Virus record (IMG/VR): IMGVR_UViG_3300025413_001393
Span: 32,001-96,000 of that record
DNA length: 64,000 bases
Source: a virus
Reading direction: 5' to 3' (one strand)
Shown here: positions 498-57,010 of the stretch, in pieces
Numbering within the stretch: position 1 is the first letter of the stretch
Layout: each line of letters starts with the position of its first letter
Position numbers and translations under genes: made by a program
The notes under the pieces: model-generated
The model's database searches: none
The model's input: the letters and a program-made list of their open reading frames with translations, nothing else
What the model was told of the DNA's origin: nothing

Positions 498-632
498 ATG
501 AGTACAGGTGCAGGAAAAGGTCCAAAACAACGTCCAACAGATTTCAAAGCTTACAAAGAAAACTTTCCCAAGACTACCAACAAGGTAGAAGGGTTTGTCC
601 TTAAAAAAGGTAAGCTAACTAAGAAGTACTAA
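498..632 (+). CDS. Small basic hypothetical protein, 44 aa (not in ORF track)
   Basis: Manual translation MSTGAGKGPKQRPTDFKAYKENFPKTTNKVEGFVLKKGKLTKKY*. Confidence 0.6.
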   Translation: MSTGAGKGPKQRPTDFKAYKENFPKTTNKVEGFVLKKGKLTKKY

Positions 633-991
633 GCTACAGATAGCTCTAGTATCTTATTGAAGTAAGAAGAAGATACCTTCTCAGGTATTTTAGGCAATGT
701 CTTTACATTGAGTGACTTCAATCTATAATCAAAATACATAAGACCTTCTTCTTTATGATTCTCTACTCTAAAAGGAATAGGAATTTCAAAGTTCTCTCTC
801 ACGTTCTTATCAGACATTAACGATATCTGAATATAATAATGTATTCTTCTAAAGAGAATTAGTCTTCCTTTTTTAACAACCTTATCTCCGATAGAAAATA
901 CTACTTGCTTTTGCAGACAAGTAAGTAAAAACGGTTCACCAGGTACTTGATCGAAGCTGATAATAGTTGGAGCAAAGATATGAGAGTTCAT
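629..991 (-). CDS. Hypothetical protein
   Basis: 120-aa ORF with 4-nt overlap to upstream gene in a contiguous minus-strand operon. Confidence 0.75.
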   Translation of the reverse strand: MNSHIFAPTIISFDQVPGEPFLLTCLQKQVVFSIGDKVVKKGRLILFRRIHYYIQISLMSDKNVRENFEIPIPFRVENHKEEGLMYFDYRLKSLNVKTLPKIPEKVSSSYFNKILELSVA

Positions 992-1374
992 GTGTTGTTA
1001 AAAGCTGATTTTTGTGCAGAAGACATATTCAATAGTCTTTCGTTAAAGTATTTCCAAAATGGTAACGGATCCGGAGAACATTTAATGACAGCAATAACTT
1101 CTACATCGTCACAATTAATCATTCTCCAGTTTTGTAAAAATATATCCCATGCTACAACTAGGTTCTTTGCTGCAGGTTGATATCTAAGTCTTCCAGTAGG
1201 ATCTTTATAGTTAAGAATGTTTTTACCAGGAGTTGATCGAAGAAGCCCCATATCTTTTGTACAGAGCATTCTTCGATAATCCTTATAACCTGGTTTGTTT
1301 ATGCGTCTACGAAAACGGAGTTCAACAGCATTAGTGCCTAGTAATAGTTCTAATGATGAACGTCCGAGAATCAT
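988..1374 (-). CDS. SH3/Sm-like beta-barrel protein (WYL_2/DUF2693-like)
   Basis: VELRFRRR...RRMLCT...VVAWDIFLQNWRMIN resembles the F.K.DG..R.M.CT...VWD....WRSF pattern. Confidence 0.55.
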   Translation of the reverse strand: MILGRSSLELLLGTNAVELRFRRRINKPGYKDYRRMLCTKDMGLLRSTPGKNILNYKDPTGRLRYQPAAKNLVVAWDIFLQNWRMINCDDVEVIAVIKCSPDPLPFWKYFNERLLNMSSAQKSAFNNT

Positions 1375-1760
1375 TACTTAGAAGGCTTAACGATACCAAA
1401 TATTCTCTGTTCATTAAGGAACACAATAGTCTTTCCGTCCTTTTGAATAGCAATTAGACCTTTATCTCCTGGAAACATTACGCATTGATCTTTCTTAACT
1501 TGTCTACAATCTGGTCCAGCAAGAATAACCTTACCAATACGCCAAGCCTTTTGATCTACTACTTGGTTTGGAAGAATAATACCGTTACGAACAAGTGATT
1601 TGCCATCCTCTGCAACGTCTACATATTCTACCTGAATTACATCTCCAAGAAGTTCTACAACATCATAGTCTTCTGGAAGAGGACAGTTTTTGTAAGCATC
1701 GATGTTAGCAAGACCGTTGTTTTCTCTTGCTGCGTTATATTGGTTTTGTGCAATTGACAT
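1374..1760 (-). CDS. groES: Co-chaperonin GroES (gp31-like)
   Basis: LLGDVIQV...GIILP...GKVILAGP...VKKDQCVMF...FLNEQRIFGIV fits Cpn10. Confidence 0.8.
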   Translation of the reverse strand: MSIAQNQYNAARENNGLANIDAYKNCPLPEDYDVVELLGDVIQVEYVDVAEDGKSLVRNGIILPNQVVDQKAWRIGKVILAGPDCRQVKKDQCVMFPGDKGLIAIQKDGKTIVFLNEQRIFGIVKPSK

Positions 1761-1781
1761 AACAATAACTTATCATACATT

Positions 1782-2135
1782 TTATGTTAGATCAAGCTGT
1801 AAAGACAGTAAATTAGCAATCTCTCTTTTAGATAGCTCGTGATTAATTGCATGCATTCTAAGAGTTTTGTCTTCTTCCGTTTGCTCTTCTTTTATCTTCT
1901 TAATATATTTCATATTAGGCAATGATTTCATTTTAGGAAACATGGCAATCATTGTTTTATAATGAAGCTCTTTGCTTTCAAGAAGTACTTGCATATTTGC
2001 CGAATTCATATAAGCAGCAACATCCGGATTAATAAAACTTAACCACCTTGTAACAAGATAAGGAACGTACTCATCAAGAGATAAGTCTCCTTTCTTTGTA
2101 ATGATTATATCTTTTAGATAATCAAAAATTGTCAT
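1782..2135 (-). CDS. gp62: Probable clamp loader small subunit (ATG at 2135)
   Basis: MTIFDYLKDI...YVPYLVTRWLS...HY......PK......YIKK pattern of gp62-like proteins. Confidence 0.6.
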   Translation of the reverse strand: MTIFDYLKDIIITKKGDLSLDEYVPYLVTRWLSFINPDVAAYMNSANMQVLLESKELHYKTMIAMFPKMKSLPNMKYIKKIKEEQTEEDKTLRMHAINHELSKREIANLLSLQLDLT

Positions 2136-2658
2136 GCTGTGTTTCAACAAAAATAGAATGAGCTAAAAATGTGAAACACTCTACAGCCTTTTGTTTAAAA
2201 CTATCCATCTTTTCTTGATTAAAAGATAATTTATAAAAACCTTCATTATCTCCATCAAGAGAAAATATAAAATGCATAAGCATAGAATCTTTGACTCTAT
2301 TTAAAATACTAATATTTGCTTGTGTATCTCCTTGCACAATAATGTTATTACCATCCACATAACATTCAACTTCAAATGTTTGAGCAAATAATGATCCTAA
2401 TTGAGCTGCATACAAACGTTGAAAACAAACTCCTCCGTAAATGTTGGAATTAGGAATCTCAATTGCAAGTACTAAGGAATTACCAAAATCGAGAGCTCCT
2501 ATTTTTGTAGGATATTCAAACGCAATAATATTGCCAAAAGGAGATATTTTATCTCTAAAAAGATAATACGAAAATCTCTTCTTAACAAGTTCGCAACTAT
2601 AAACAGGAGTCTCTCCCATTATGTGCTTTGTCTGTTCTTCTGTTAGTATCATTTGCAA
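2122..2658 (-). CDS. DUF366-like protein (putative biotin/lipoate-ligase-like fold), divergent
   Basis: KRFSYYLFR..ISPFGNIIAF...EIPN...GGVCFQRLY...VDGNNIIV...NISI resembles phage DUF366 proteins but is shorter. Confidence 0.45.
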   Translation of the reverse strand: MQMILTEEQTKHIMGETPVYSCELVKKRFSYYLFRDKISPFGNIIAFEYPTKIGALDFGNSLVLAIEIPNSNIYGGVCFQRLYAAQLGSLFAQTFEVECYVDGNNIIVQGDTQANISILNRVKDSMLMHFIFSLDGDNEGFYKLSFNQEKMDSFKQKAVECFTFLAHSIFVETQHDNF

Positions 2659-3320
2659 TATGTTTCCTTAAATTTGATGTTCGCTTCTTCCCACTCTTTT
2701 GTCAACATAGAATCTCCAAGTCCATGATGAACGATTCTAATTGGAAGCACGCCACAAGTAACTTTTTTCTCATTTGCTCTCATACAAAAAGCAAGATCAT
2801 AAAAATGAAAATTAAAAGCTTCATCAAAATACAATTCGTTTTCAACTGCGTCTCTTACCTTAACAGCAAGAAACACACCATCTAGTGTAAGAGCTCTTGA
2901 GTTAGTTGGACCAAAGCATGTAGTCCATACATTGCCTTTGCTGCTATGAGCAACTTCCCCAACATAATCTTCTCTCTTAGAGGCAAGATGCCAGGCAAGC
3001 TTGTCGAGGCTGGTATTGAACGTTTTAGCGCCTGCTAGGCCTGTTATAGAATATGGACTATTAAAAAGCTTTTCTACTAAAAAGGCATCTTCTAGTTCCA
3101 CATCATCGTGAACAAACAAAACAACTTTGTCAATGTTTTCAGGATCCTTAAGAATTTCATTATAGCATGTTGAAAGCCCTCTTGTATTATCCTTAAACAA
3201 ATGAAAATTTACATCGTACCTTTCTTCATAATGATGCATAAGGCTCTTATACAAAGGCCTAGTTTCAAAGTCTTCAATAGACTTAGCTTTTGTGCAAGCA
3301 ACGATTAATAATTCACTCAT
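2649..3320 (-). CDS. Glycosyltransferase, GT-A fold (GT2-like)
   Basis: LFVHDDV (DxD-like), GLAG, TLDGVFLA, FDEAFNFHFYDLAFC, IVHHG. Confidence 0.85.
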   Translation of the reverse strand: MSELLIVACTKAKSIEDFETRPLYKSLMHHYEERYDVNFHLFKDNTRGLSTCYNEILKDPENIDKVVLFVHDDVELEDAFLVEKLFNSPYSITGLAGAKTFNTSLDKLAWHLASKREDYVGEVAHSSKGNVWTTCFGPTNSRALTLDGVFLAVKVRDAVENELYFDEAFNFHFYDLAFCMRANEKKVTCGVLPIRIVHHGLGDSMLTKEWEEANIKFKETYCK

Positions 3321-4108
3321 ATTTTGTTATACTTTGTTTTAAGATAGTTGATATTCTTTATAGCTAACTCAGTTTGTTCGTGTGTCAAACGAGTATTAAA
3401 ATAATCGTTAGTTGTTGGAATACGAGTAGTATCTCCACTCTCAAAACTAATACCATTAATTGCTGCAAGCACCGTATAACAACTATCGGAACTACGAATG
3501 TTTGGAATTTTGTTGTTTAGATAAAAATCAAACTCTGTGTGTTCTCCCATTCCAAGTAAATGAACAGACTTCAATAGCCAACCTCTCTTATACAATTCGT
3601 CAACACATTGATTTCTCGAAGAAGCTATTTGTGTATCTCCAGTTGCATTGTTCCAACATTTTGGAACAGCAATCTTACTAAGACCAATAGTACTACAATC
3701 TCCATCCGTTATCATCTTATAATAACAATCCATCCATTCTTGTTTGGTATTGCCTTGTGGACAAGCAAATATCTTAGTATGTTGAAGCAAACCTCTAATG
3801 GACATCTTCATCTTGAATGAATAATAATTCATTAATGTCTGAACTGTATCAAACAAAACATCTGGAGCAATAACTTCATTTGGTTTAAGCTCTTTAACAA
3901 CCTCCATCAGCTGATCTTCTGTTACAAGACTATCCTCTGCAGCTCCGTTATCAAGAGTTATCCAAGCATCTGGTTTAGTTCGTCTTATTTGCTGAAAGAA
4001 CCATCTATACGTTTCATCGTTCAGATAATGGTGACACAATACAAAGTATCTGTCCCCGTGACCAGTTAAAGCCAATTCAGTATTAGGAGGAATGAGATAA
4101 AAATCCAT
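3317..4108 (-). CDS. dpdA: TGT-fold deazaguanine-DNA transglycosylase (DpdA-like)
   Basis: TGT motifs in order: LDNGAAE, IAPDV, PQG, HLLG, RSSDS; queD, queE and folE2 lie in the same window. Confidence 0.8.
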   Translation of the reverse strand: MDFYLIPPNTELALTGHGDRYFVLCHHYLNDETYRWFFQQIRRTKPDAWITLDNGAAEDSLVTEDQLMEVVKELKPNEVIAPDVLFDTVQTLMNYYSFKMKMSIRGLLQHTKIFACPQGNTKQEWMDCYYKMITDGDCSTIGLSKIAVPKCWNNATGDTQIASSRNQCVDELYKRGWLLKSVHLLGMGEHTEFDFYLNNKIPNIRSSDSCYTVLAAINGISFESGDTTRIPTTNDYFNTRLTHEQTELAIKNINYLKTKYNKI

Positions 4109-4122
4109 AGGTATAATTTAGC

Positions 4123-4554
4123 TTACTTTGAATCTTTTTCAAGTATGTATTTCTTCACTTCTAAGATACCAAGATTAATATCTCCCTGCTCTGCATCTTC
4201 AAAAGATTGACTATCTCCTTCTCGAGCTCTTTCATCATATCTACGTTTACGTTCATTTTGAGGACACTCAATCCACAAAACGGTTGCATCAGGAAATGCT
4301 TGCAAAATTTCTTTCTGTCTTACACCAGATACAACAAGTTGCTTTGGATTATTAAACGTAGAAAGTAAACGAAGATGTCCAATAATCTCGTTGAACATAT
4401 GCTTTGAATCTTGAAGCTTTTCTCTATCTACGGTTTTTTTCAAACCTCTTACAATATCTCCAACCTCAACAAAAACACAATCACTAATCTGACTTAGTGT
4501 TTTTGAATACAGAGTTTTACCACTACAAAGTTGACCACAAACAAATGATATCAT
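4123..4554 (-). CDS. P-loop nucleotide kinase (NMP/dNMP kinase-like)
   Basis: Walker A GQLCSGKT at N-terminus; R..R...R.REGD lid-like segment. Confidence 0.75.
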   Translation of the reverse strand: MISFVCGQLCSGKTLYSKTLSQISDCVFVEVGDIVRGLKKTVDREKLQDSKHMFNEIIGHLRLLSTFNNPKQLVVSGVRQKEILQAFPDATVLWIECPQNERKRRYDERAREGDSQSFEDAEQGDINLGILEVKKYILEKDSK

Positions 4555-4560
4555 TTTTAA

Positions 4561-4588
4561 AATATATATTAAAATTAATAAAATTCAA
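4561..4588 (-). promoter_or_regulatory. Sigma70-type promoter for kinase-dpdA-GT-DUF366 operon
   Basis: TTGAAT-N16-TATATT then 6 nt to ATG at 4554. Confidence 0.55.
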
Positions 4589-4590
4589 GA

Positions 4591-5232
4591 CTAATTATCC
4601 CAGCCTAATGCTTCAGAAATACTAGGAAACTCCTTAACAAAAATGTTTTTAATTTCCACAGCCACATCTCTATGCTCCTTTTGCGTCAACTCATCACAAC
4701 GTATTTGCAAATAATGTATCCAAGATCGGACTGTCCCGTGCATAATTACCGTTGTCGATGTATTAAGAGGAAGAATCATCCGAGCGCATTCCTTTGCAAG
4801 ACCAGCGGAAATAAGATCATCGTAAAGAGCAAGTGAGTTTTGTTGTATAAATTCTACCTTCAATTTTAGCTCGGGGCTCAAATCTACTTCAGTATCTCCT
4901 ACCTGTCTATTAGTTTTTCCTTGCAATCTCCATTCGATATCTTCAAGCTCGGTTGCTGTAGAATATCTTTGTGAAAATTCTTGAAACGAAAAACTTCTAT
5001 GTCTAAGAATTTGTGCAGCAATAGCTCGAGATGTTTTAATCTCGAATCCTACGCTGACCATCTCAAATGGCGAAAAGTGTTTATGGGTAATTAGATACTT
5101 TAACAGTTTTGGAGCTGTTTCGGTATTAAATTGGTTCGAAGGATTACTTACTCTTGCACAGTACGTAATCAATTCTTCTGCATTATTAATTCCTTTAACT
5201 AAAGGAGTAGAAATAGATATTAGCTTTACCAT
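4591..5232 (-). CDS. thyX: Flavin-dependent thymidylate synthase
   Basis: HFSPFE and ThyX motif QILRHRSFSFQEFSQRY; ECARMILP. Confidence 0.97.
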   Translation of the reverse strand: MVKLISISTPLVKGINNAEELITYCARVSNPSNQFNTETAPKLLKYLITHKHFSPFEMVSVGFEIKTSRAIAAQILRHRSFSFQEFSQRYSTATELEDIEWRLQGKTNRQVGDTEVDLSPELKLKVEFIQQNSLALYDDLISAGLAKECARMILPLNTSTTVIMHGTVRSWIHYLQIRCDELTQKEHRDVAVEIKNIFVKEFPSISEALGWDN

Positions 5233-5585
5233 TTGTAGTAGACGCGACCTCCATTTTCATTATCTTCGAGAACTTCGACCATATCACATTTGAATAGACC
5301 TCCAATCTGTTGTGCTAACATCTCGCACGACATTGCTCCAAGATTGCCTTGATAATATTGATCCAACCATTTAAGGATCTGCTGTTTAAAATCAATAATT
5401 TCAATGTCACGATCTTGGTGAGTTACTGTCTTTTCGCAAGTAATATGAAAAATATGTCTGTGAGGATACTGAAGGAAATGGACATGAGGCTTATCAGGAA
5501 TAGCCTCTGCTACTCCTGGCCAGTTGTGAAGAGCTTCGTATTGGAGTTTAACGATAATAGTTGTTCGCATATATGCAGTATACAA
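5226..5585 (-). CDS. QueD-paralogous tunnel-fold protein, DpdL-like (putative 7-carboxy-7-deazaguanine decarboxylase)
   Basis: LQYPHRHIF (LxxxHRHxF in place of QueD CxxxHGH), DRDIEIIDFK, SCEMLA, VLEDNENG. Confidence 0.65.
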   Translation of the reverse strand: MYTAYMRTTIIVKLQYEALHNWPGVAEAIPDKPHVHFLQYPHRHIFHITCEKTVTHQDRDIEIIDFKQQILKWLDQYYQGNLGAMSCEMLAQQIGGLFKCDMVEVLEDNENGGRVYYKW

Positions 5586-5625
5586 TAAAAAAGGCCCCTC
5601 ACAACATTAAAGTCGTAAGGGGCCT
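5586..5625 (-). terminator. Rho-independent terminator
   Basis: aggcccct...aggggcct stem, extended by GU pairs, followed on the minus strand by a T6 run. Confidence 0.8.
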
Positions 5626-5908: not shown

Positions 5909-7093
5909 CTAAATTATTGCAGGACGTGAAAATACTTGAATACCAGAAAGATAAGGAACTTGATATGGTACAAATGACGCAAAATGGGACGAAGACGAAA
6001 GATATGGATTATATGTATTGATTTTTACATTCTCAGTAAGAAGACCGTATCCAGCTGGTCCTTCAATAATGACATCAATTAAACCAGGAGTTTGAATCGA
6101 AGGCATTACAAACGTAGTCAAGTTGTCGTTATTTGATTGCCATAGTGAAGGATCAATACGATAAGCAAAGAACGGAGGATAGTCTGCTGAAAGAGAAGGA
6201 ATAGCTGAAAACGGATTTTGAACAGTTGAAGCATAATGTACAGGACCACCGGATACATAAACGTTTTGTATTTTAGTCATTCCTGAACCATAAACATTAA
6301 ATTGTTGCAATTTTCCAACGTTCGTAAAATAAGGCTCAACTATCGAAGGACCTGGAGGAACTCCTTTTACTTGTTTATAGTCTGAATGATCCGTATCGAC
6401 TTGATATGCCGGATCAAGAAGATATTGTGGAGGCATTCCAGTGTATTCTGTAGAATAGTTTGTGTGGATAGTATAGATTGTTCCAATGCTTTCTGTTGGA
6501 GGAGCTTGGAACATCCAGCCTTTGAATGTAAAAGAAAGGTCTGCAACAACTTTAGCTACTTGTGTTGAAGAGATATCCATAGGATAACTCATTGCAACGT
6601 TGCCATCCCAGAATATACTAGAGCGTATTTCAAAATTTGGTCTAGCAGGTGTTGTCCAAGATACTGAAAAATACGGATTAACGTAAGGAATAATATGAGA
6701 TATGATTTGATCCATATCTTTTTGATATCTTGTAGCTACTGTTACTTTAAGATTTAAATCAATAGGAAGAGGAGTCTGCTCGTTTGATACAGAGCCACCT
6801 CCAACACTATTATATGTTCCAAGAAGTTTATTAAAGACTCTATTTGTATCTCTACTAATACCTCCAATATATACAGCAACAACAGGTAGTTGGAGATTCT
6901 GATCTTTATCCAAAAGGTCTGCCATCACTCTTTGCTTTGGAGCATACAGAACTCTTGTCTGTATTTGATCCTGAGCTTGTTTATTTTCGTTAAAACGCTT
7001 TACAACAATGTCCGAAATAGCGTTCAAAAAAACAGTAACCATCGTCTCAACCTCAAAATCATAGGTATAAACTCCTGGTATAATATTACTCAT
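5909..7093 (-). CDS. gp15: Tail sheath stabilizer/terminator with C-terminal extension
   Basis: VLYAPKQR, LPVVAV..GISRD..R, PIDL.L.V.VATRYQKDMDQIISHIIPY.NP; late promoter TAAATA at 7100-7105. Confidence 0.75.
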   Translation of the reverse strand: MSNIIPGVYTYDFEVETMVTVFLNAISDIVVKRFNENKQAQDQIQTRVLYAPKQRVMADLLDKDQNLQLPVVAVYIGGISRDTNRVFNKLLGTYNSVGGGSVSNEQTPLPIDLNLKVTVATRYQKDMDQIISHIIPYVNPYFSVSWTTPARPNFEIRSSIFWDGNVAMSYPMDISSTQVAKVVADLSFTFKGWMFQAPPTESIGTIYTIHTNYSTEYTGMPPQYLLDPAYQVDTDHSDYKQVKGVPPGPSIVEPYFTNVGKLQQFNVYGSGMTKIQNVYVSGGPVHYASTVQNPFSAIPSLSADYPPFFAYRIDPSLWQSNNDNLTTFVMPSIQTPGLIDVIIEGPAGYGLLTENVKINTYNPYLSSSSHFASFVPYQVPYLSGIQVFSRPAII

Positions 7094-8095: not shown

Positions 8096-8461
8096 TTAAA
8101 CTTCTTTAGTATGATCTTCAAGAAGCTTGTCATGCCATATTTTAGCATCTTCAACAGAATTGGGGTTGATATTTTTATAATTTCCAAGGTGACCAACTAG
8201 TAAGTGACATATAATGCCGTAGCTGGCGCTTTCACAAAGAGTCATTAGATTAGAAGGCTCGAGTTCAAGTTCTGGATGAAGATGAAATGGCTTAATATGA
8301 TGTACGTTGAGTTGCTTTGTATCTCCGCATATGACACATTTTGGATTATTCTTAAGATGTTCTTTACGAACTTTTGCCCATTGCGGCGAACGTTGAGGTC
8401 CATCTACTGGTGTTTTGCCTTGAGCAATATCGTTGGTGTGTTTTAAGCGGGTGGAAGCCAT
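8096..8461 (-). CDS. Small HNH endonuclease
   Basis: CVIC...VHHIKP...NLMTLCE...CHLLVGH. Confidence 0.85.
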   Translation of the reverse strand: MASTRLKHTNDIAQGKTPVDGPQRSPQWAKVRKEHLKNNPKCVICGDTKQLNVHHIKPFHLHPELELEPSNLMTLCESASYGIICHLLVGHLGNYKNINPNSVEDAKIWHDKLLEDHTKEV

Positions 8462-8497: not shown

Positions 8498-11320
8498 ATG
8501 TTAGATTACAGCTTCGAAAACGTTTACAAATTTAATACTCTCTTAGAGCAAAAAGCTGAATCCGAGGGTCCAAAAGCTAAGTTAACGTATGCTGAAGATT
8601 TGATTCTCGAAAGAGGTAAAGATGGTATCAAGTATTTTAACGAACAAATACTCGAATTATTAAAGAACTTTCAAGGTCTGGAAACAGATCAAATGGTTAA
8701 CGCCAAAGTAGATGGTTCTCCAGGTATTCTTTTTGGTGCTGATCCAAGACCTCAATATCAAGGTCAGTTCTTTATAGGAGTCAATCGTGCTATTATTGGA
8801 GCTAAGAATCCTAAAGCTGTTCACGACGAGCACGATCTTAACACATTAATAACAAACGAAGGTTTAAGACACGTTATATCCAACCTTCTTCCGTATCTTA
8901 AGAATCTTTGTGCTGGTACTAATTTTATTTATCAAGCAGATGTATTGTTCTCCAGTCCCGAACAAAAGAAAGAAGAAGTAATTGATGGAGAACAATGTTT
9001 AACGTTTACTCCAAACATGCTAACGTATGCTGTTCCTGTTGAAAGTAGATCACAGCTTTATAAAAAATTAAAGTTTGCAAAGATTGGAATTGTAGTTCAT
9101 GATAAGTGCACAGGAAAGACTGATGAAAGCGGTCAGCAAATTATACCATCCTCAGTCGGTAAACAGTATCCTGAACTGCTAAACGCTGCAGCAAAGTCAA
9201 AAGATGTATTTGTTGATGGCAGTAGACACGAGTCCGTTCAAATGGATATCGATGAACAGAGTATTGCTAATCTAAATGCTAAACTTCAAAAGATAAATTC
9301 CATAGCAAGTTCAATTGGAGACGATTTTAATACTGAGTGGATTACTAACAAGCCAATTCAAAGCAAATATCAAACATTTGTAGGGCGTCATGTAACAAGA
9401 GATGATGGTGGTATTTTTGAGCTTTCAAAACAAAAAGCTAAACCAAACTTTAGTAAGATAGTTGATGAACTCAACAAGCAAGTATTAGAAGAGTACAAAT
9501 CTGCTTCAAAAAAAGAATCAGTCTCTGCTTGGTTAAACATTAATCACGATAATCTCGAAAAAATGTTAGAAGTATTCTTCAATATTAGAAATATTGTAGA
9601 TGATGTTCTTGATCTTCTATATACAATGGAATCTAAGCTTGGTAAAACTTTTGTAAAACTTCCAGATGGTACGTATCAACCAAGTCGTGGAGAAGGTTTT
9701 GTTCTATTCAAGCATCAAAACCACGTTAAGTTTATTGATCGTTTAGACTTCACAAGAAGTGCAAAACTTTATAGCAAATACAATATGCCAGCTAGTGTTG
9801 ATGAGAGTTTAATCTTAGAAAGCCAGCATGTTTTTCACAACTTAAAGCGAATCTTACAAAAAGATGTTAATCCAACTATTCAATGGCTAGAACAACTTAC
9901 AGGTTTGCAATTCGTTGAAACAAACAACATTCTAGGAACAACAGGAAAGAAAGAATCTAGCGGAGATTTGGATCTTGGTATTAATGCAAACGATCATACA
10001 AAGGAAGAGCTCGTCGCAAAGCTTCAAGCTTGGTGTGAAAAGAATAATATACCTCATGATAAAATCTTTAATACAAGAGAAAGAAAAGATAAGAAAACAA
10101 AAGAACCTATTCCTGCATTCAAGGATGGTTGGATTGATAAGACAGGAACAAGTGTACATTTCAAAGCTCCAATCAACGGAGACGTTTCAAACGGATTTGT
10201 TCAAACAGATTTTATGTTCCTTCCTGATTTAGAGTGGTCAAGATTTGCTCTTCAAGGAAGTCCGCATGAAGTTTCAGCTTTTAAAGGAGAAGACAAACAC
10301 GAGCTGCTTAAGAAATTAGCTAAAGTAGCCGATCCAAATTTAGTAATGTCATGGAGTCATCTTAGTGGATTATTAAATTCGGAAACAAGAGAAGTCATAT
10401 CAAATAAACCGGACGAAGTAGCTGAAAAAATTCTTGGAAACGGAGCAAAAGCAAACGATATTACTTCAGTAGAAAATATACTAGCTTTTATTAAAGCCCA
10501 TCATTTGCAACAAAAATTTGCGCCAGCAATAGATGAGTATAAAGCTCAATTCAATAAACAAAACGAAATTGAGGCGTTGCTAAGAGAATCGGCTTTTTCC
10601 TTCAAGCGCTTTTTTGTTGAGCAAGCAAGTGTTGCTGAAATAGGCTTCTTTCCTGGAGCGTTTAAACCTCTTCATACAGGACATATAAAGGCAATAAACG
10701 ATGCAGCTAAACAAGTTAAAGGACCGTTGTTTGTAGTATTATCAAAAAATTCAAGAGAATCAGAAGGAGGTATGGAGTTTACTCTAGAGCAAACTTTAGA
10801 ATTGTTTAAATTATACAAACAATTTTTACCAGAAAAAGTTCATATATCAGTTGCTGATAAAACTCCTCCACTTACAGTCATGCAATGCCTTGTTATTATG
10901 AACAACGAAGGCAAATATGTACTCGGTAAGACTCCAAAAAATTGGGATCCTAATGTACCTTTGCCTGATCCAGAAACACTCGTTGAGCCATCAACAAAAG
11001 AAGTAATGAAATATGTACCACAAGCTTCAAGTTATGTTGTAAAACTCGCTGTTGGAAATACACCAGAAGATCAAAAAAGATATACTGATATTTTCAAAGG
11101 GGATCGTTATCAAGGCAAGGGAGCAAAAGCTGAAGTAATACAAACACTTAAAGGATGGAGTGCTACAATTCTTCGTAATGGCTTAGAAAACCTTAACAAG
11201 GAAGTACTTGAAGAGTACATTCCTTTTAAGAGTAATACAGAAGAATTCAAAAGAGCTCTAACAATACTCTACGGCAACAATCCTAAACTAAAACAAGCTT
11301 TGCAGTTGTTTAACAATTAG
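8498..11320 (+). CDS. 940-aa multidomain protein: ligase-like (KxDG) + Pol-beta-like NTase + HxGH nucleotidyltransferase
   Basis: KVDGSP and GEGFV...VKF; GTTGKKESSGDLDL and VQTDFM; FFPGAFKPLHTGH; TAAATA at 8484-8489. Confidence 0.75.
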   Translation: MLDYSFENVYKFNTLLEQKAESEGPKAKLTYAEDLILERGKDGIKYFNEQILELLKNFQGLETDQMVNAKVDGSPGILFGADPRPQYQGQFFIGVNRAIIGAKNPKAVHDEHDLNTLITNEGLRHVISNLLPYLKNLCAGTNFIYQADVLFSSPEQKKEEVIDGEQCLTFTPNMLTYAVPVESRSQLYKKLKFAKIGIVVHDKCTGKTDESGQQIIPSSVGKQYPELLNAAAKSKDVFVDGSRHESVQMDIDEQSIANLNAKLQKINSIASSIGDDFNTEWITNKPIQSKYQTFVGRHVTRDDGGIFELSKQKAKPNFSKIVDELNKQVLEEYKSASKKESVSAWLNINHDNLEKMLEVFFNIRNIVDDVLDLLYTMESKLGKTFVKLPDGTYQPSRGEGFVLFKHQNHVKFIDRLDFTRSAKLYSKYNMPASVDESLILESQHVFHNLKRILQKDVNPTIQWLEQLTGLQFVETNNILGTTGKKESSGDLDLGINANDHTKEELVAKLQAWCEKNNIPHDKIFNTRERKDKKTKEPIPAFKDGWIDKTGTSVHFKAPINGDVSNGFVQTDFMFLPDLEWSRFALQGSPHEVSAFKGEDKHELLKKLAKVADPNLVMSWSHLSGLLNSETREVISNKPDEVAEKILGNGAKANDITSVENILAFIKAHHLQQKFAPAIDEYKAQFNKQNEIEALLRESAFSFKRFFVEQASVAEIGFFPGAFKPLHTGHIKAINDAAKQVKGPLFVVLSKNSRESEGGMEFTLEQTLELFKLYKQFLPEKVHISVADKTPPLTVMQCLVIMNNEGKYVLGKTPKNWDPNVPLPDPETLVEPSTKEVMKYVPQASSYVVKLAVGNTPEDQKRYTDIFKGDRYQGKGAKAEVIQTLKGWSATILRNGLENLNKEVLEEYIPFKSNTEEFKRALTILYGNNPKLKQALQLFNN

Positions 11321-30477: not shown

Positions 30478-31479
30478 TTATTTTAAACCGTTTTGTATAC
30501 CTTTGCAAATTACTGCAGTAGCTGACCACGGATGCAAACTCTCCAAATGGTCTGTTACGATACTAAAATCTAAAACTTTACCGTTGCTATACAACTCATC
30601 CAACCCTTCGTATAGAAGGCGAATCGCATCCTCAGTAAAAAGCAAATTAGAACCATTCAATTCAGCAAATGCTTGCTCATCTCTACGCTTGCAAATAATC
30701 ACAACCTCAGTAGGAACTTTTGTTCGAGCCATTTCAATAATGTCTTCAATGTATACAACATTCTTAGGATCAAATTGAATTGTGATCTTAGCAATAGAAC
30801 GTTGACTGTGACCATTTGCTGCCTGTCCTCGCTTGTTAGTTGCATCTTGTGCTAGCTCAAAAGAACAAGGGCATGTTGAACTATAAACATAATCAACAGT
30901 CAAGTAAAACTTGTATTCTGTTCCATGCTTTTGACCTTCAAGAATGCAATTATAATAAATGTAACCTTCAGCCTTTTCGTGACTTAGTTTTACTCCATCA
31001 ACAATTTTAAATACATCGCTATCTGGGGCATTGTCAGGCAACTCCTTACGAGTACGAAGAGCCCTTTGCGTCCACGGATATTTAAACTTCATCTTGCAGT
31101 ATACATCCTTCGACCCTTGCTTGCTTTGAAGCACATCAAGAATATGAGTAATACCTTCAATAGAAACGTGATTAGCAATCTGCTCGTGCATTACAATAGG
31201 AAACCTGCTAAGGTTCAATCCTTTTGCATTTGGATTATCTAAAGATCCATACAGCGAAACGGTAGCAGTTAACTTTTCAATCGAACCATCTCGACGAATA
31301 AAATTAACAGGAAGATCTACACCTGATACACCTACTTTATTGATAGGCACACGAGCTCCAGGAAGAACCGGATCCACTTGAGGATCCGGTAAATCTGCAT
31401 CTTCGGGATAATATGTCTCGTCGTACTTAAAATTCAGACGAGGCATATGAGCTGTATAATCGTTATAATGATAAGACAT
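30478..31479 (-). CDS. folE2: GTP cyclohydrolase type IB (FolE2/MptA family)
   Basis: INKVGVS, KG.NLSRF, SSTCPCS, HSQRS, F.EDAIR, ESLH. Confidence 0.92.
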   Translation of the reverse strand: MSYHYNDYTAHMPRLNFKYDETYYPEDADLPDPQVDPVLPGARVPINKVGVSGVDLPVNFIRRDGSIEKLTATVSLYGSLDNPNAKGLNLSRFPIVMHEQIANHVSIEGITHILDVLQSKQGSKDVYCKMKFKYPWTQRALRTRKELPDNAPDSDVFKIVDGVKLSHEKAEGYIYYNCILEGQKHGTEYKFYLTVDYVYSSTCPCSFELAQDATNKRGQAANGHSQRSIAKITIQFDPKNVVYIEDIIEMARTKVPTEVVIICKRRDEQAFAELNGSNLLFTEDAIRLLYEGLDELYSNGKVLDFSIVTDHLESLHPWSATAVICKGIQNGLK

Positions 31480-55036: not shown

Positions 55037-55795
55037 CTAAACCTTGAGGGCGCGGTCCCAAACCAAGAGATGTAATCTTGGACTAAAGTTGACATGCATA
55101 GCCTTTGCATATTCAGCAACAGCTGGTGCATTAGCAATATGTTCCTGTCTCGATCCACTACAAGGCATGAACCAAATTCTTTGAAGAGGAACATTAATGC
55201 CGTTATAATCATCAACATATTTTCTCCAAATCTCTTCAATGTCTCTGTCAGAAGTAATAACAAACTTAAATCCAGAATTATGTTCAACGTGCCATTTGAG
55301 AACTTCTGGCTTGTATGTCTTTTCTTCAGGATCTCCGTTTGTCGTAAGCTTTGGAGAAGTCGTAAACGTAGCACAAAACTCTGTTACCCAACGCTCGTCT
55401 GGAATAAGAGTTGCATTAGATTCAAAATCAATACGAGGAGTAAATCCATACTTCTGCACAAATGACTCCATAAACTTCAATAAGGCTTTTTGCTGAAGAA
55501 GTGGTTCACCACCAGTAATTTTCAAAATAGCTCTATTACGAAGATGCTCAACGTAATTGTTGTCTTCCATCAATTTGAAAATCTCATCAAATGTCATCTT
55601 GTTCTTAATAGACCATGAAATAAACGAATCACAACCATTTGGAGAATCCTCTGAAGCAAAGCCTATGCAAGTTAAATTGCACATCGAAAGTCTTAGAAAT
55701 ACAGAAGGCTGACCAACATACTCTCCTTCTCCTTCTAACGTATAAAAACAATAATCGTCGCTAATAAACAGCGTTTCTTTAGAGGTATCAATCAT
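55037..55795 (-). CDS. queE: 7-carboxy-7-deazaguanine synthase (radical SAM)
   Basis: FYTLEGEG..VG.PSVF.RL..CNLTC...CDS; TGGEP; SPKL; KFV; PRLH. Confidence 0.93.
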   Translation of the reverse strand: MIDTSKETLFISDDYCFYTLEGEGEYVGQPSVFLRLSMCNLTCIGFASEDSPNGCDSFISWSIKNKMTFDEIFKLMEDNNYVEHLRNRAILKITGGEPLLQQKALLKFMESFVQKYGFTPRIDFESNATLIPDERWVTEFCATFTTSPKLTTNGDPEEKTYKPEVLKWHVEHNSGFKFVITSDRDIEEIWRKYVDDYNGINVPLQRIWFMPCSGSRQEHIANAPAVAEYAKAMHVNFSPRLHLLVWDRALKV

Positions 55796-56569: not shown

Positions 56570-57010
56570 TTAAGGTTTTTGATATATTGCAGAGTTGTTT
56601 TCATGTTCAAATACTTCTACTTTTTCTACCCAGCAGCGGTCTCCGTACTTTTCACTAATAAGCTTTTGAGCAGCATTGAAGCACCACTCAGCAGTCTTCT
56701 CAATTCCGACTGACTCCATAATACGAAGCTGGCAGCCACGCTGATTATTAAGTTCTTGCCAAAAAGGAAGAAGAGGATCGTCTTGTGCTACACAAAGCTT
56801 ATGATCAAACTGATCGTTAAGAATTGCTTTGAGCTCTTTAAGCCCAGCAAAATCTACTACCCAGTTCTTTTCATCAAGACTTGAAGCTCCAAAATAGAAC
56901 TTAGCAAGAAGTTGATATCCGTGAATATATTGACAATGACTATGTGTAGCTTTCCATTGACGGAATGCACACGACCCTAGTTCTAATACTTTAGTTGATT
57001 GATAGCTCAT
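56570..57010 (-). CDS. queD: 6-carboxy-5,6,7,8-tetrahydropterin synthase
   Basis: HCQYIHGY, WVVDF, FDH, E..A, V.VFE...N.A. Confidence 0.92.
   Translation of the reverse strand: MSYQSTKVLELGSCAFRQWKATHSHCQYIHGYQLLAKFYFGASSLDEKNWVVDFAGLKELKAILNDQFDHKLCVAQDDPLLPFWQELNNQRGCQLRIMESVGIEKTAEWCFNAAQKLISEKYGDRCWVEKVEVFEHENNSAIYQKP

Follow-up and report, generated by a model that had tools for sequence, protein, structure and literature searches.

The 64,000-nucleotide stretch of viral DNA analysed here (the window) represents bases 32001-96000 of the 125-kb IMG/VR virus record IMGVR_UViG_3300025413_001393 (CheckV 59%), and a gp15-like tail-sheath stabiliser encoded at 5909-7093 assigns its phage to the T4-like myoviruses. 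The locus in question consists of four adjacent open reading frames (ORFs) on the minus strand, which code successively for a nucleoside monophosphate (NMP) kinase-like P-loop protein, a homologue of the guanine transglycosylase DpdA3, a glycosyltransferase (GT) of the GT-A fold and a degenerate relative of the DUF366 proteins (Table 1). The order of these genes and their identities hold as they were given in the original prediction, which was made from the letters of the sequence, and so do the overlapping junctions downstream of dpdA: the stop codon of DpdA3 and the start codon of the GT share an ATGA at 3317-3320, and the GT and the DUF366 relative share another at 2649-2652. A gap of 14 nt, read from the sequence, separates the stop codon of the kinase-like gene from the ATG of DpdA3, and the ATG of the next ORF, at 2135, overlaps the stop codon of the DUF366 relative.

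It had been further suggested that the base inserted by DpdA3 may be glycosylated by the GT, or that the carboxylate of 7-carboxy-7-deazaguanine (CDG) may be amidated, with the DUF366 protein as the candidate enzyme. The present analysis lends no support to a glycosylated or amidated deazaguanine. We consider it rather probable that the locus represents a system for 2'-deoxy-7-deazaguanosine (dDG) of the type described in phage phiST, which supplanted QueC along with a glutamine amidotransferase (Gat) beside a GT unrelated to deazaguanine and a decaying DUF366. This assessment draws on homology, synteny, the presence or absence of genes and the loss of motifs, from which the chemistry is inferred throughout.

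Related loci (approximately 115) were fetched from IMG/VR with GT and DUF366 alignments, and their genes were labelled by means of tblastn and jackhmmer; 80 of the loci are unique, and most of the surveyed records are fragments. The GT, DUF366, a small protein (o1782), a GroES-like protein and two more genes form a conserved block, and the content upstream of the GT varies by clade. In clade A (16 of the 80 loci, including the window), DpdL, the kinase-like gene and DpdA3 precede the GT; in clade B (43 loci) this place is occupied by QueC and/or a class-II Gat; and in clade C (15 loci) neither set occurs, and the GT is adjoined by a primase-like gene and an ORF on the reverse strand.

The DpdL, kinase-like and DpdA3 cassette

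The DpdA3 of the window is 41% identical to phiST CGPG_00065 over its full length (residues 1-262, E 1e-54) and shares 42% identity with a Chryseobacterium phage MA9V-3 protein, and the corresponding alignment (A3) contains 51 invariant columns. The relation to the tRNA-guanine transglycosylases (TGTs) did not emerge from direct profile searches: DpdA3 has no Pfam match, PF01702 is silent on the genome, and the profile of alignment A3 finds no TGT in the PDB; the published link between phiST DpdA3 and the TGTs is based on HHpred (98.8%; PMC10516641). DpdL exhibits 32% identity to phiST CGPG_00067 and 38% to its MA9V-3 counterpart. The signature LxxxHRHxF, which in DpdL stands in place of the CxxxHGH of QueD (PMC10516641), is present as LQYPHRHIF.

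The third component is the kinase-like protein, which exceeds the PF13238 cut-off of 29.4 bits (Table 1) and contains a Walker A motif; its profile matches the AdkA-like structures 3LW7 and 3H0K in the PDB (5e-6), followed by UMP/CMP kinase (3e-4). It shows 33% identity to its MA9V-3 equivalent and 25.5% to phiST CGPG_00066. In both of these phages the kinase-like homologue is located directly upstream of DpdA3, with DpdL before it, and in all 16 clade-A loci, too, the kinase-like gene occurs between DpdL and DpdA3. The proposed connection between the kinase and dpdA is thus borne out, and, judged from these comparisons, the kinase-like protein, which resembles NMP kinases, joins DpdL and DpdA3 as a third conserved cassette member. 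CGPG_00066 itself has been described as unknown and as not common to other deazaguanine phages; in phiST DNA every G (100%) is replaced by dDG, and the modification could not be rebuilt in E. coli from phiST DpdL and DpdA alone, such that further enzymes are perhaps needed (PMC10516641). The kinase-like protein may phosphorylate a deazaguanine nucleotide in a pre-replicative route, or it may act otherwise; a route through the nucleotide pool seems worth considering because the replacement of G in phiST is complete. NCBIfam named none of the kinase-like protein, DpdA3, the GT and the DUF366 relative.

The remaining precursor functions are also encoded in the genome, which possesses FolE2, QueD and QueE in addition to DpdL, spread over 54 kb. 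QueC was found neither in the genome of the window nor in the complete clade-A genome G023, and the clade showed no QueC or CDG-amide route. In phiST and MA9V-3, what follows DpdA3 downstream bears no relation to the GT or DUF366 of the window, and both phages lack that GT and DUF366.

A single sigma70-type promoter at 4561-4588 was originally thought to head the four genes. A match is indeed present at this position, but it is weak (9 of 12 positions), and such matches are not enriched in this AT-rich DNA: 37 occur in the same 8.2 kb, as compared with 27.5 +/- 6 in shuffled sequences. The match lies in a 36-nt gap between ThyX and the kinase-like gene which is found only in the window phage and in locus L046, where the match is partly kept. 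These are also the only two loci in which ThyX intervenes between DpdL and the kinase-like gene (L046:445-1086). Relatives without ThyX have the kinase-like gene directly after DpdL, following a gap of 2 nt, and seven loci (5625-5577 in the window, and six relatives; alignment A9) share a terminator hairpin with a TTGnnn-16/17-TATACT element upstream of DpdL. For these reasons the transcription unit most likely starts at DpdL and would extend past the GroES-like gene as far as the terminator at 463-442. The 3' half of the hairpin and its T-run also serve as the spacer of the promoter-like element. In clade B, ThyX immediately adjoins a DpdA-like gene; since the two occur together there as well as in the cassette of the window and L046, ThyX and DpdA tend to travel together.

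Table 1. Features of the locus and of the precursor pathway in the window (positions in the window; all on the minus strand).
Feature	Position	Strand	Basis
Strong intrinsic terminator hairpin (5625-5592) overlapped by promoter-like TTGTGA-16-TATACT (5604-5577)	5577-5625	-	Sequence scan; position kept in 7 clade-A loci
DpdL, predicted CDG decarboxylase (T-fold QueD paralogue), start ATG 5570	5226-5570	-	phiST/MA9V-3 homology; LxxxHRHxF
ThyX, flavin-dependent thymidylate synthase	4591-5232	-	PF02511, 1.2e-47
Sigma70-like match TTGAAT-16-TATATT, weak, at most an internal promoter	4561-4588	-	9/12 match
NMP-kinase-like P-loop protein, 143 aa (GQLCSGKT)	4123-4554	-	PF13238 (AAA_18), 39.2 bits
DpdA3-family guanine transglycosylase homologue	3317-4108	-	phiST CGPG_00065 homology; phrog_20335, 7e-59
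GT-A glycosyltransferase, H71-D72-D73	2649-3320	-	PF13712, 31.9 bits
Degenerate DUF366 relative, 176 aa	2122-2652	-	Homologues with PF04017; 2DDZ fold
Small conserved protein (o1782), after DUF366 in nearly all related loci	1782-2135	-	Synteny
GroES-like co-chaperonin, in conserved downstream block	1374-1760	-	Cpn10, 4e-4; phrog_3188, 7e-8
Two conserved proteins closing the block (988-1374, 629-991)	629-1374	-	Synteny; terminator 463-442 after
FolE2 (GTP cyclohydrolase IB), first step to CDG	30478-31479	-	PF02649, 2.9e-52
QueE (CDG synthase)	55037-55795	-	35% identity to MA9V-3 QueE, E 2e-40; Fer4_12 match
QueD (CPH4 synthase)	56570-57010	-	PF01242, 2.9e-16; 43% identity to phiST QueD

Elsewhere in the window, a free-standing HNH endonuclease gene (8096-8461) is situated between the tail genes and a large DUF6267/nucleotidyltransferase fusion (8498-11320).

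DUF366 and QueC in related phages and in cells

Among the 59 loci having enough upstream flank, 24 contain the full set of QueC, Gat, GT and DUF366. The clade-B QueC matches PF06508 (1.8e-53), and the Gat, of approximately 210 residues, starts with MCGI like the N-terminal nucleophile (Ntn) amidotransferases and mostly overlaps the GT in an ATGA. L067:8625-10004 and some 24 further clade-B loci have a separate Ntn-type Gat after QueC, an arrangement that looks like a split Gat-QueC. Clade-B genomes also harbour a distant DpdA-like gene, located 27-127 kb from the GT/DUF366 block between a family-B DNA polymerase (PolB) and ThyX, with UvsX, QueE and QueD nearby; in L120-L125 (G001, G003-G006 and G008) its product comprises 285-303 residues and matches the DpdA3 profile at E values of 1e-9 to 1e-21, with no significant Pfam match. 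A preQ0-derived base such as dG+ is the probable product in the phages with the separate Gat. A small group of G008-type phages shows the order QueC, NADAR and DUF366, with neither Gat nor GT. The gene between QueC and DUF366 codes for a NADAR-domain protein in this type (L025:9463-9990) and for a ParB-like nuclease (ParBc_2) in Bdellovibrio (L145:7345-8016).

Homologues of the DUF366 relative in the window carry PF04017, and the profile of this relative matches PDB entry 2DDZ at 1e-6. Its start is ATG 2652 instead of the previously assumed TTG 2658. The protein yields a confident AlphaFold2 (AF2) model (pLDDT 91), for which Foldseek returns 2DDZ (TM 0.75) and next the lipoate and biotin ligases LplA and BirA; the fold of the class II aminoacyl-tRNA synthetases and biotin/lipoate ligases, originally given for DUF366, is therefore borne out. 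The sequence is nevertheless degenerate in clade A. PF04017 is silent on G000 and G023, but it scores 60-62 bits in clade B and reaches 253 bits in Desulfofundulus. A 14-residue segment with the MVDxED motif is missing; GDD is changed to GNN (as in the window) or ESC; the invariant Lys of K-x-S-x-S-I-A is replaced by Gln; and the C-terminal Lys (A-T-x-K-V) is lost. K-x-S-x-S-I-A resembles the Lys motif with which LplA and BirA bind the adenylate. Compared with the clade-B reference L067, DUF366 is among the best-conserved genes in QueC-bearing relatives (65-82% identity), and in those without QueC its identity falls to 27-31% or becomes undetectable.

The same association is evident in cellular genomes. 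A DUF366 protein of Margulisiibacteriota was used to fetch 34 bacterial and archaeal loci (L128-L161), whose sources include Desulfofundulus, Bdellovibrionota, Planctomycetota, 'Deltaproteobacteria', WOR-3, Hydrothermarchaeota and Methanobacteriota. QueC is found upstream of DUF366 on the same strand in 26 of them, the distance being at most 250 nt in 19, and 11 of the loci have QueE immediately downstream. For example, Desulfofundulus australicus DSM 11792 (L136:6978-9895) contains the series queD-queC-DUF366-queE-folE. The presence of QueD in this operon led us to reject the notion that DUF366 replaces QueD. Unlike the copies in these 26 loci and in clade B, the DUF366 relative of the window is not beside queC.

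On the evidence of gene neighbourhood, DUF366 is a companion of QueC in cells and in phages, linked to QueC rather than to dpdA. Its supposed tie to deazaguanine is thereby retained, as a member of 7-deazaguanine metabolism, and the partner is exchanged. We also revised an earlier notion, suggested by the lack of DpdA3 in most loci, that the GT and DUF366 are wholly unrelated to deazaguanine, as the genes upstream of the GT proved to be QueC and Gat. No functional study of DUF366, PH0223, COG2029 or PF04017 was found in the open-access literature. It is conceivable, at somewhat less than an even chance, that DUF366 is a working part of preQ0 biosynthesis, i.e., an ATP-using QueC partner of the ligase fold that acts on the CDG carboxylate or amide, and that the copy in the window is a remnant left after the switch from QueC to DpdL; as a corollary, the kinase-like protein would be the missing third factor for dDG together with DpdL and DpdA3.

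The glycosyltransferase

The GT exceeds the PF13712 (Glyco_tranf_2_5) cut-off of 27 bits (Table 1), and its Atlas clusters are named after the same family. The DxD-type motif H71-D72-D73 is invariant in 27 sequences, and the enzymes of clades A, B and C and of locus L110 have 24 invariant columns in common (these three residues and 21 more). Its AF2 model (pLDDT 94) shows a GT-A fold, with UDP-bound majastridin as the best PDB match (TM 0.70); the nearest structures act on teichoic acid, on glycans or on targets that have not been assigned, and AvpGT with Ara-A, a nucleoside glycosyltransferase, is a further structural neighbour (TM 0.57). The GT sequence profile had no match in the PDB, and tblastn with the GT and the DUF366-like protein found none among 50,697 cultured-phage records. 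Identities to L067 follow the overall divergence, with or without deazaguanine genes in the phage, both for the GT (56-59% versus 58-82%) and for GroES (64-67% versus 75-83%).

The distribution of the GT extends beyond the deazaguanine genes. The clade-C genome G002 (210.6 kb, CheckV 99%) retains the GT together with a diverged DUF366, and no match to DpdA3, QueE, QueD, QueC or TGT was found in it. Because the enzyme is kept with all its invariant residues in such deazaguanine-free relatives and is absent from phiST and MA9V-3, it would appear from its sequence and distribution to be a core enzyme of this phage lineage which is not dependent on deazaguanine. A distant T4-like group (L108-L119) exhibits the order PolB ... 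UvsX, QueC, Gat, GT and gp41-like helicase, without the DUF366/GroES block, and L110 has the same order without QueC and Gat. At L114:1331-12839 the GT forms part of a replication module that comprises PolB, UvsX, QueC, Gat, GT, gp41-like helicase, a DHH phosphoesterase and gp32. In T4, beta-gt (which is beside uvsX) and gene 42 occupy a roughly equivalent place.

Proposed history and comparison with known systems

The observations can be accommodated in the following scheme. The ancestor of this T4-like lineage probably carried QueC and a class-II Gat, as a split Gat-QueC, before the GT and DUF366, and its modified base would have been of the preQ0 or G+ type. In clade A, the DpdL-kinase-DpdA3 cassette would have displaced QueC and Gat; we infer the direction of this replacement from the distribution of the genes, without a rooted tree. 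FolE2, QueD and QueE would yield CDG, at which the pathway would branch: DpdL is predicted to decarboxylate CDG to 7-deazaguanine (DG), and DpdA3, with the kinase-like protein, to put this base into DNA as dDG. In the absence of QueC, the DUF366 of the window would have lost its task, and be decaying or re-used, while the GT would have retained its own function throughout.

Several findings weigh against this history. In approximately 24 loci, Gat and DUF366, both of them linked to deazaguanine, flank the GT, and an ancestral functional tie of the GT to the pathway may still have existed, because the QueC-Gat-GT trio recurs in the distant L108-L119 group without the DUF366/GroES block. Moreover, the independence of the GT is based on one near-complete deazaguanine-free genome, the other clade-C records being fragments. 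Finally, the clade-A DUF366 is kept in 12 of the 16 loci with conserved motifs of its own (GVCFQRLY and ETQRDNF), and may have acquired a new role.

Such a role could lie in the dDG route itself, for example as a non-catalytic CDG- or DG-binding partner of DpdL or DpdA3. In addition to the retention and the clade-specific motifs, the confident model indicates a protein that is predicted to fold, and its gene is translationally coupled within the operon. Yet no other gene of the string evolves as fast (32-48% identity, versus 58-76% for the GT and 60-73% for DpdA3), it has been lost in four relatives (L004, L045, L046 and L064) that all keep DpdL, the kinase-like gene, DpdA3 and the GT, and neither phiST nor MA9V-3 has it. 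We therefore consider its re-purposing unlikely.

Less likely still is a reading in which the GT belongs to the replication module and acts on DNA or nucleotides, its acceptor being something different from deazaguanine, and was kept for modifying DNA irrespective of the guanine analogue in use. This would agree with the placement of the L114-type GT between UvsX, QueC and Gat on one side and the gp41-like helicase on the other, and with the same slot being kept in L110 without QueC and Gat. The ThyA-like pyrimidine hydroxymethylase (PF00303), however, is absent from G000, G002, G003, G008 and G023 (four complete records, and the partial record of the window included), and therefore no known sugar-accepting base would be made; a function of the GT on hydroxymethylcytosine (hmC) or hydroxymethyluracil (hmU) was rejected for the same reason. 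In addition, the GT-A fold is unlike that of the T4 enzymes, and the nearest structures have the teichoic acid, glycan or unassigned targets described above. The repeated position after Gat, together with that in the replication module of the L114 group, leaves a DNA-related role of the GT a small probability.

The least probable of the alternatives is a new hypermodified base, i.e., a glycosylated deazaguanine or an amidated CDG carboxylate made by the GT and/or DUF366: the ATGA coupling of DpdA3, GT and DUF366, the adjacency of DpdA3 and GT in all 16 clade-A loci, the place of the clade-B GT between Gat and DUF366, the adenylate-forming ligase fold of DUF366 and the structural likeness of AvpGT would favour it, but ATGA overlaps are frequent in this packed genome, the GT persists intact where the deazaguanine pathway is missing, phiST does without both genes (as does MA9V-3) and has entirely plain dDG, the invariant Lys, GDD and MVDxED are gone from DUF366, which 4 of the 16 relatives can dispense with, the clade has no QueC or CDG-amide route, and 7-deazaguanine offers no hydroxyl or amine side chain to glycosylate.

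The proposed replacement of QueC and Gat by a phiST-type cassette has several implications. The modification in this phage is most likely dDG as described in phiST, and not a sugar-decorated base. A single genomic slot appears to have been swapped between QueC-Gat and DpdL-kinase-DpdA3, such that the chemistry of phage DNA would be changed by cassette exchange. DUF366, a family with a solved structure, neighbours QueC in six or more bacterial phyla (candidate phyla included), in two archaeal phyla and in many phages, and the link provides a candidate for an extra step or a helper in the pathway to the queuosine and archaeosine precursors. The kinase-like protein, which accompanies DpdL and DpdA3 in each of three phage lineages, would be a natural addition to the dDG reconstitution that failed. 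The DUF366-QueC link and this conserved protein are the useful leads to emerge from the locus.

Among the known systems, the glucosylation of hmC in T4 shares with the window a glycosyltransferase gene beside DNA-modification genes. The alpha-gt and beta-gt enzymes of T4 are of the GT-B fold and need hmC from a ThyA-like hydroxymethylase; the GT of the window is of the GT-A fold, its relatives lack PF00303 in the five records named above, and it persists without a modified-base pathway. Majastridin (ORF6 of the Rhodobacter blasticus ATPase operon; 2NXV and 2QGI) is likewise a UDP-binding GT-A protein, with only 14% sequence identity to the GT. We know of no acceptor for majastridin, and no function was therefore transferred from it. 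PH0223 of Pyrococcus horikoshii (2DDZ) represents the intact DUF366/PF04017 family: the protein of the window has the same fold, but fails the Pfam model, lacks MVDxED, GDD and K-x-S-x-S-I-A, and is not beside QueC.

The Gat-QueC systems, which lead to preQ0-derived modifications such as the dG+ of Enterobacteria phage 9g (summarised in PMC10516641), are approached by the sister clades, whose QueC, class-II Gat, QueD, QueE and DpdA-like genes constitute the set that would be expected for preQ0- or G+-type bases. In contrast to the fused form, QueC and Gat are separate genes in these clades and are followed by the GT and DUF366; the clade of the window has lost both QueC and Gat.

The closest counterpart is the dDG system of phiST, composed of FolE, QueD, QueE, DpdL and DpdA3 (Cui, Hutinet et al., NAR 2023; PMC10516641). 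The phage of the window differs in being a T4-like myovirus of approximately 210 kb, as opposed to a Cbastvirus, in using FolE2 instead of FolE, in the dispersal of its precursor genes over 54 kb, in the ThyX inserted in the cassette, and in having the GT and a DUF366 relic downstream and no MazG/dUTPase-like gene beside DpdL. Like phiST, it possesses a DpdL with the LxxxHRHxF signature, a DpdA3 of 41% identity, a small P-loop protein between the two (CGPG_00066 in phiST), and QueD and QueE in the absence of QueC, and its predicted product is plain 2'-deoxy-7-deazaguanosine.

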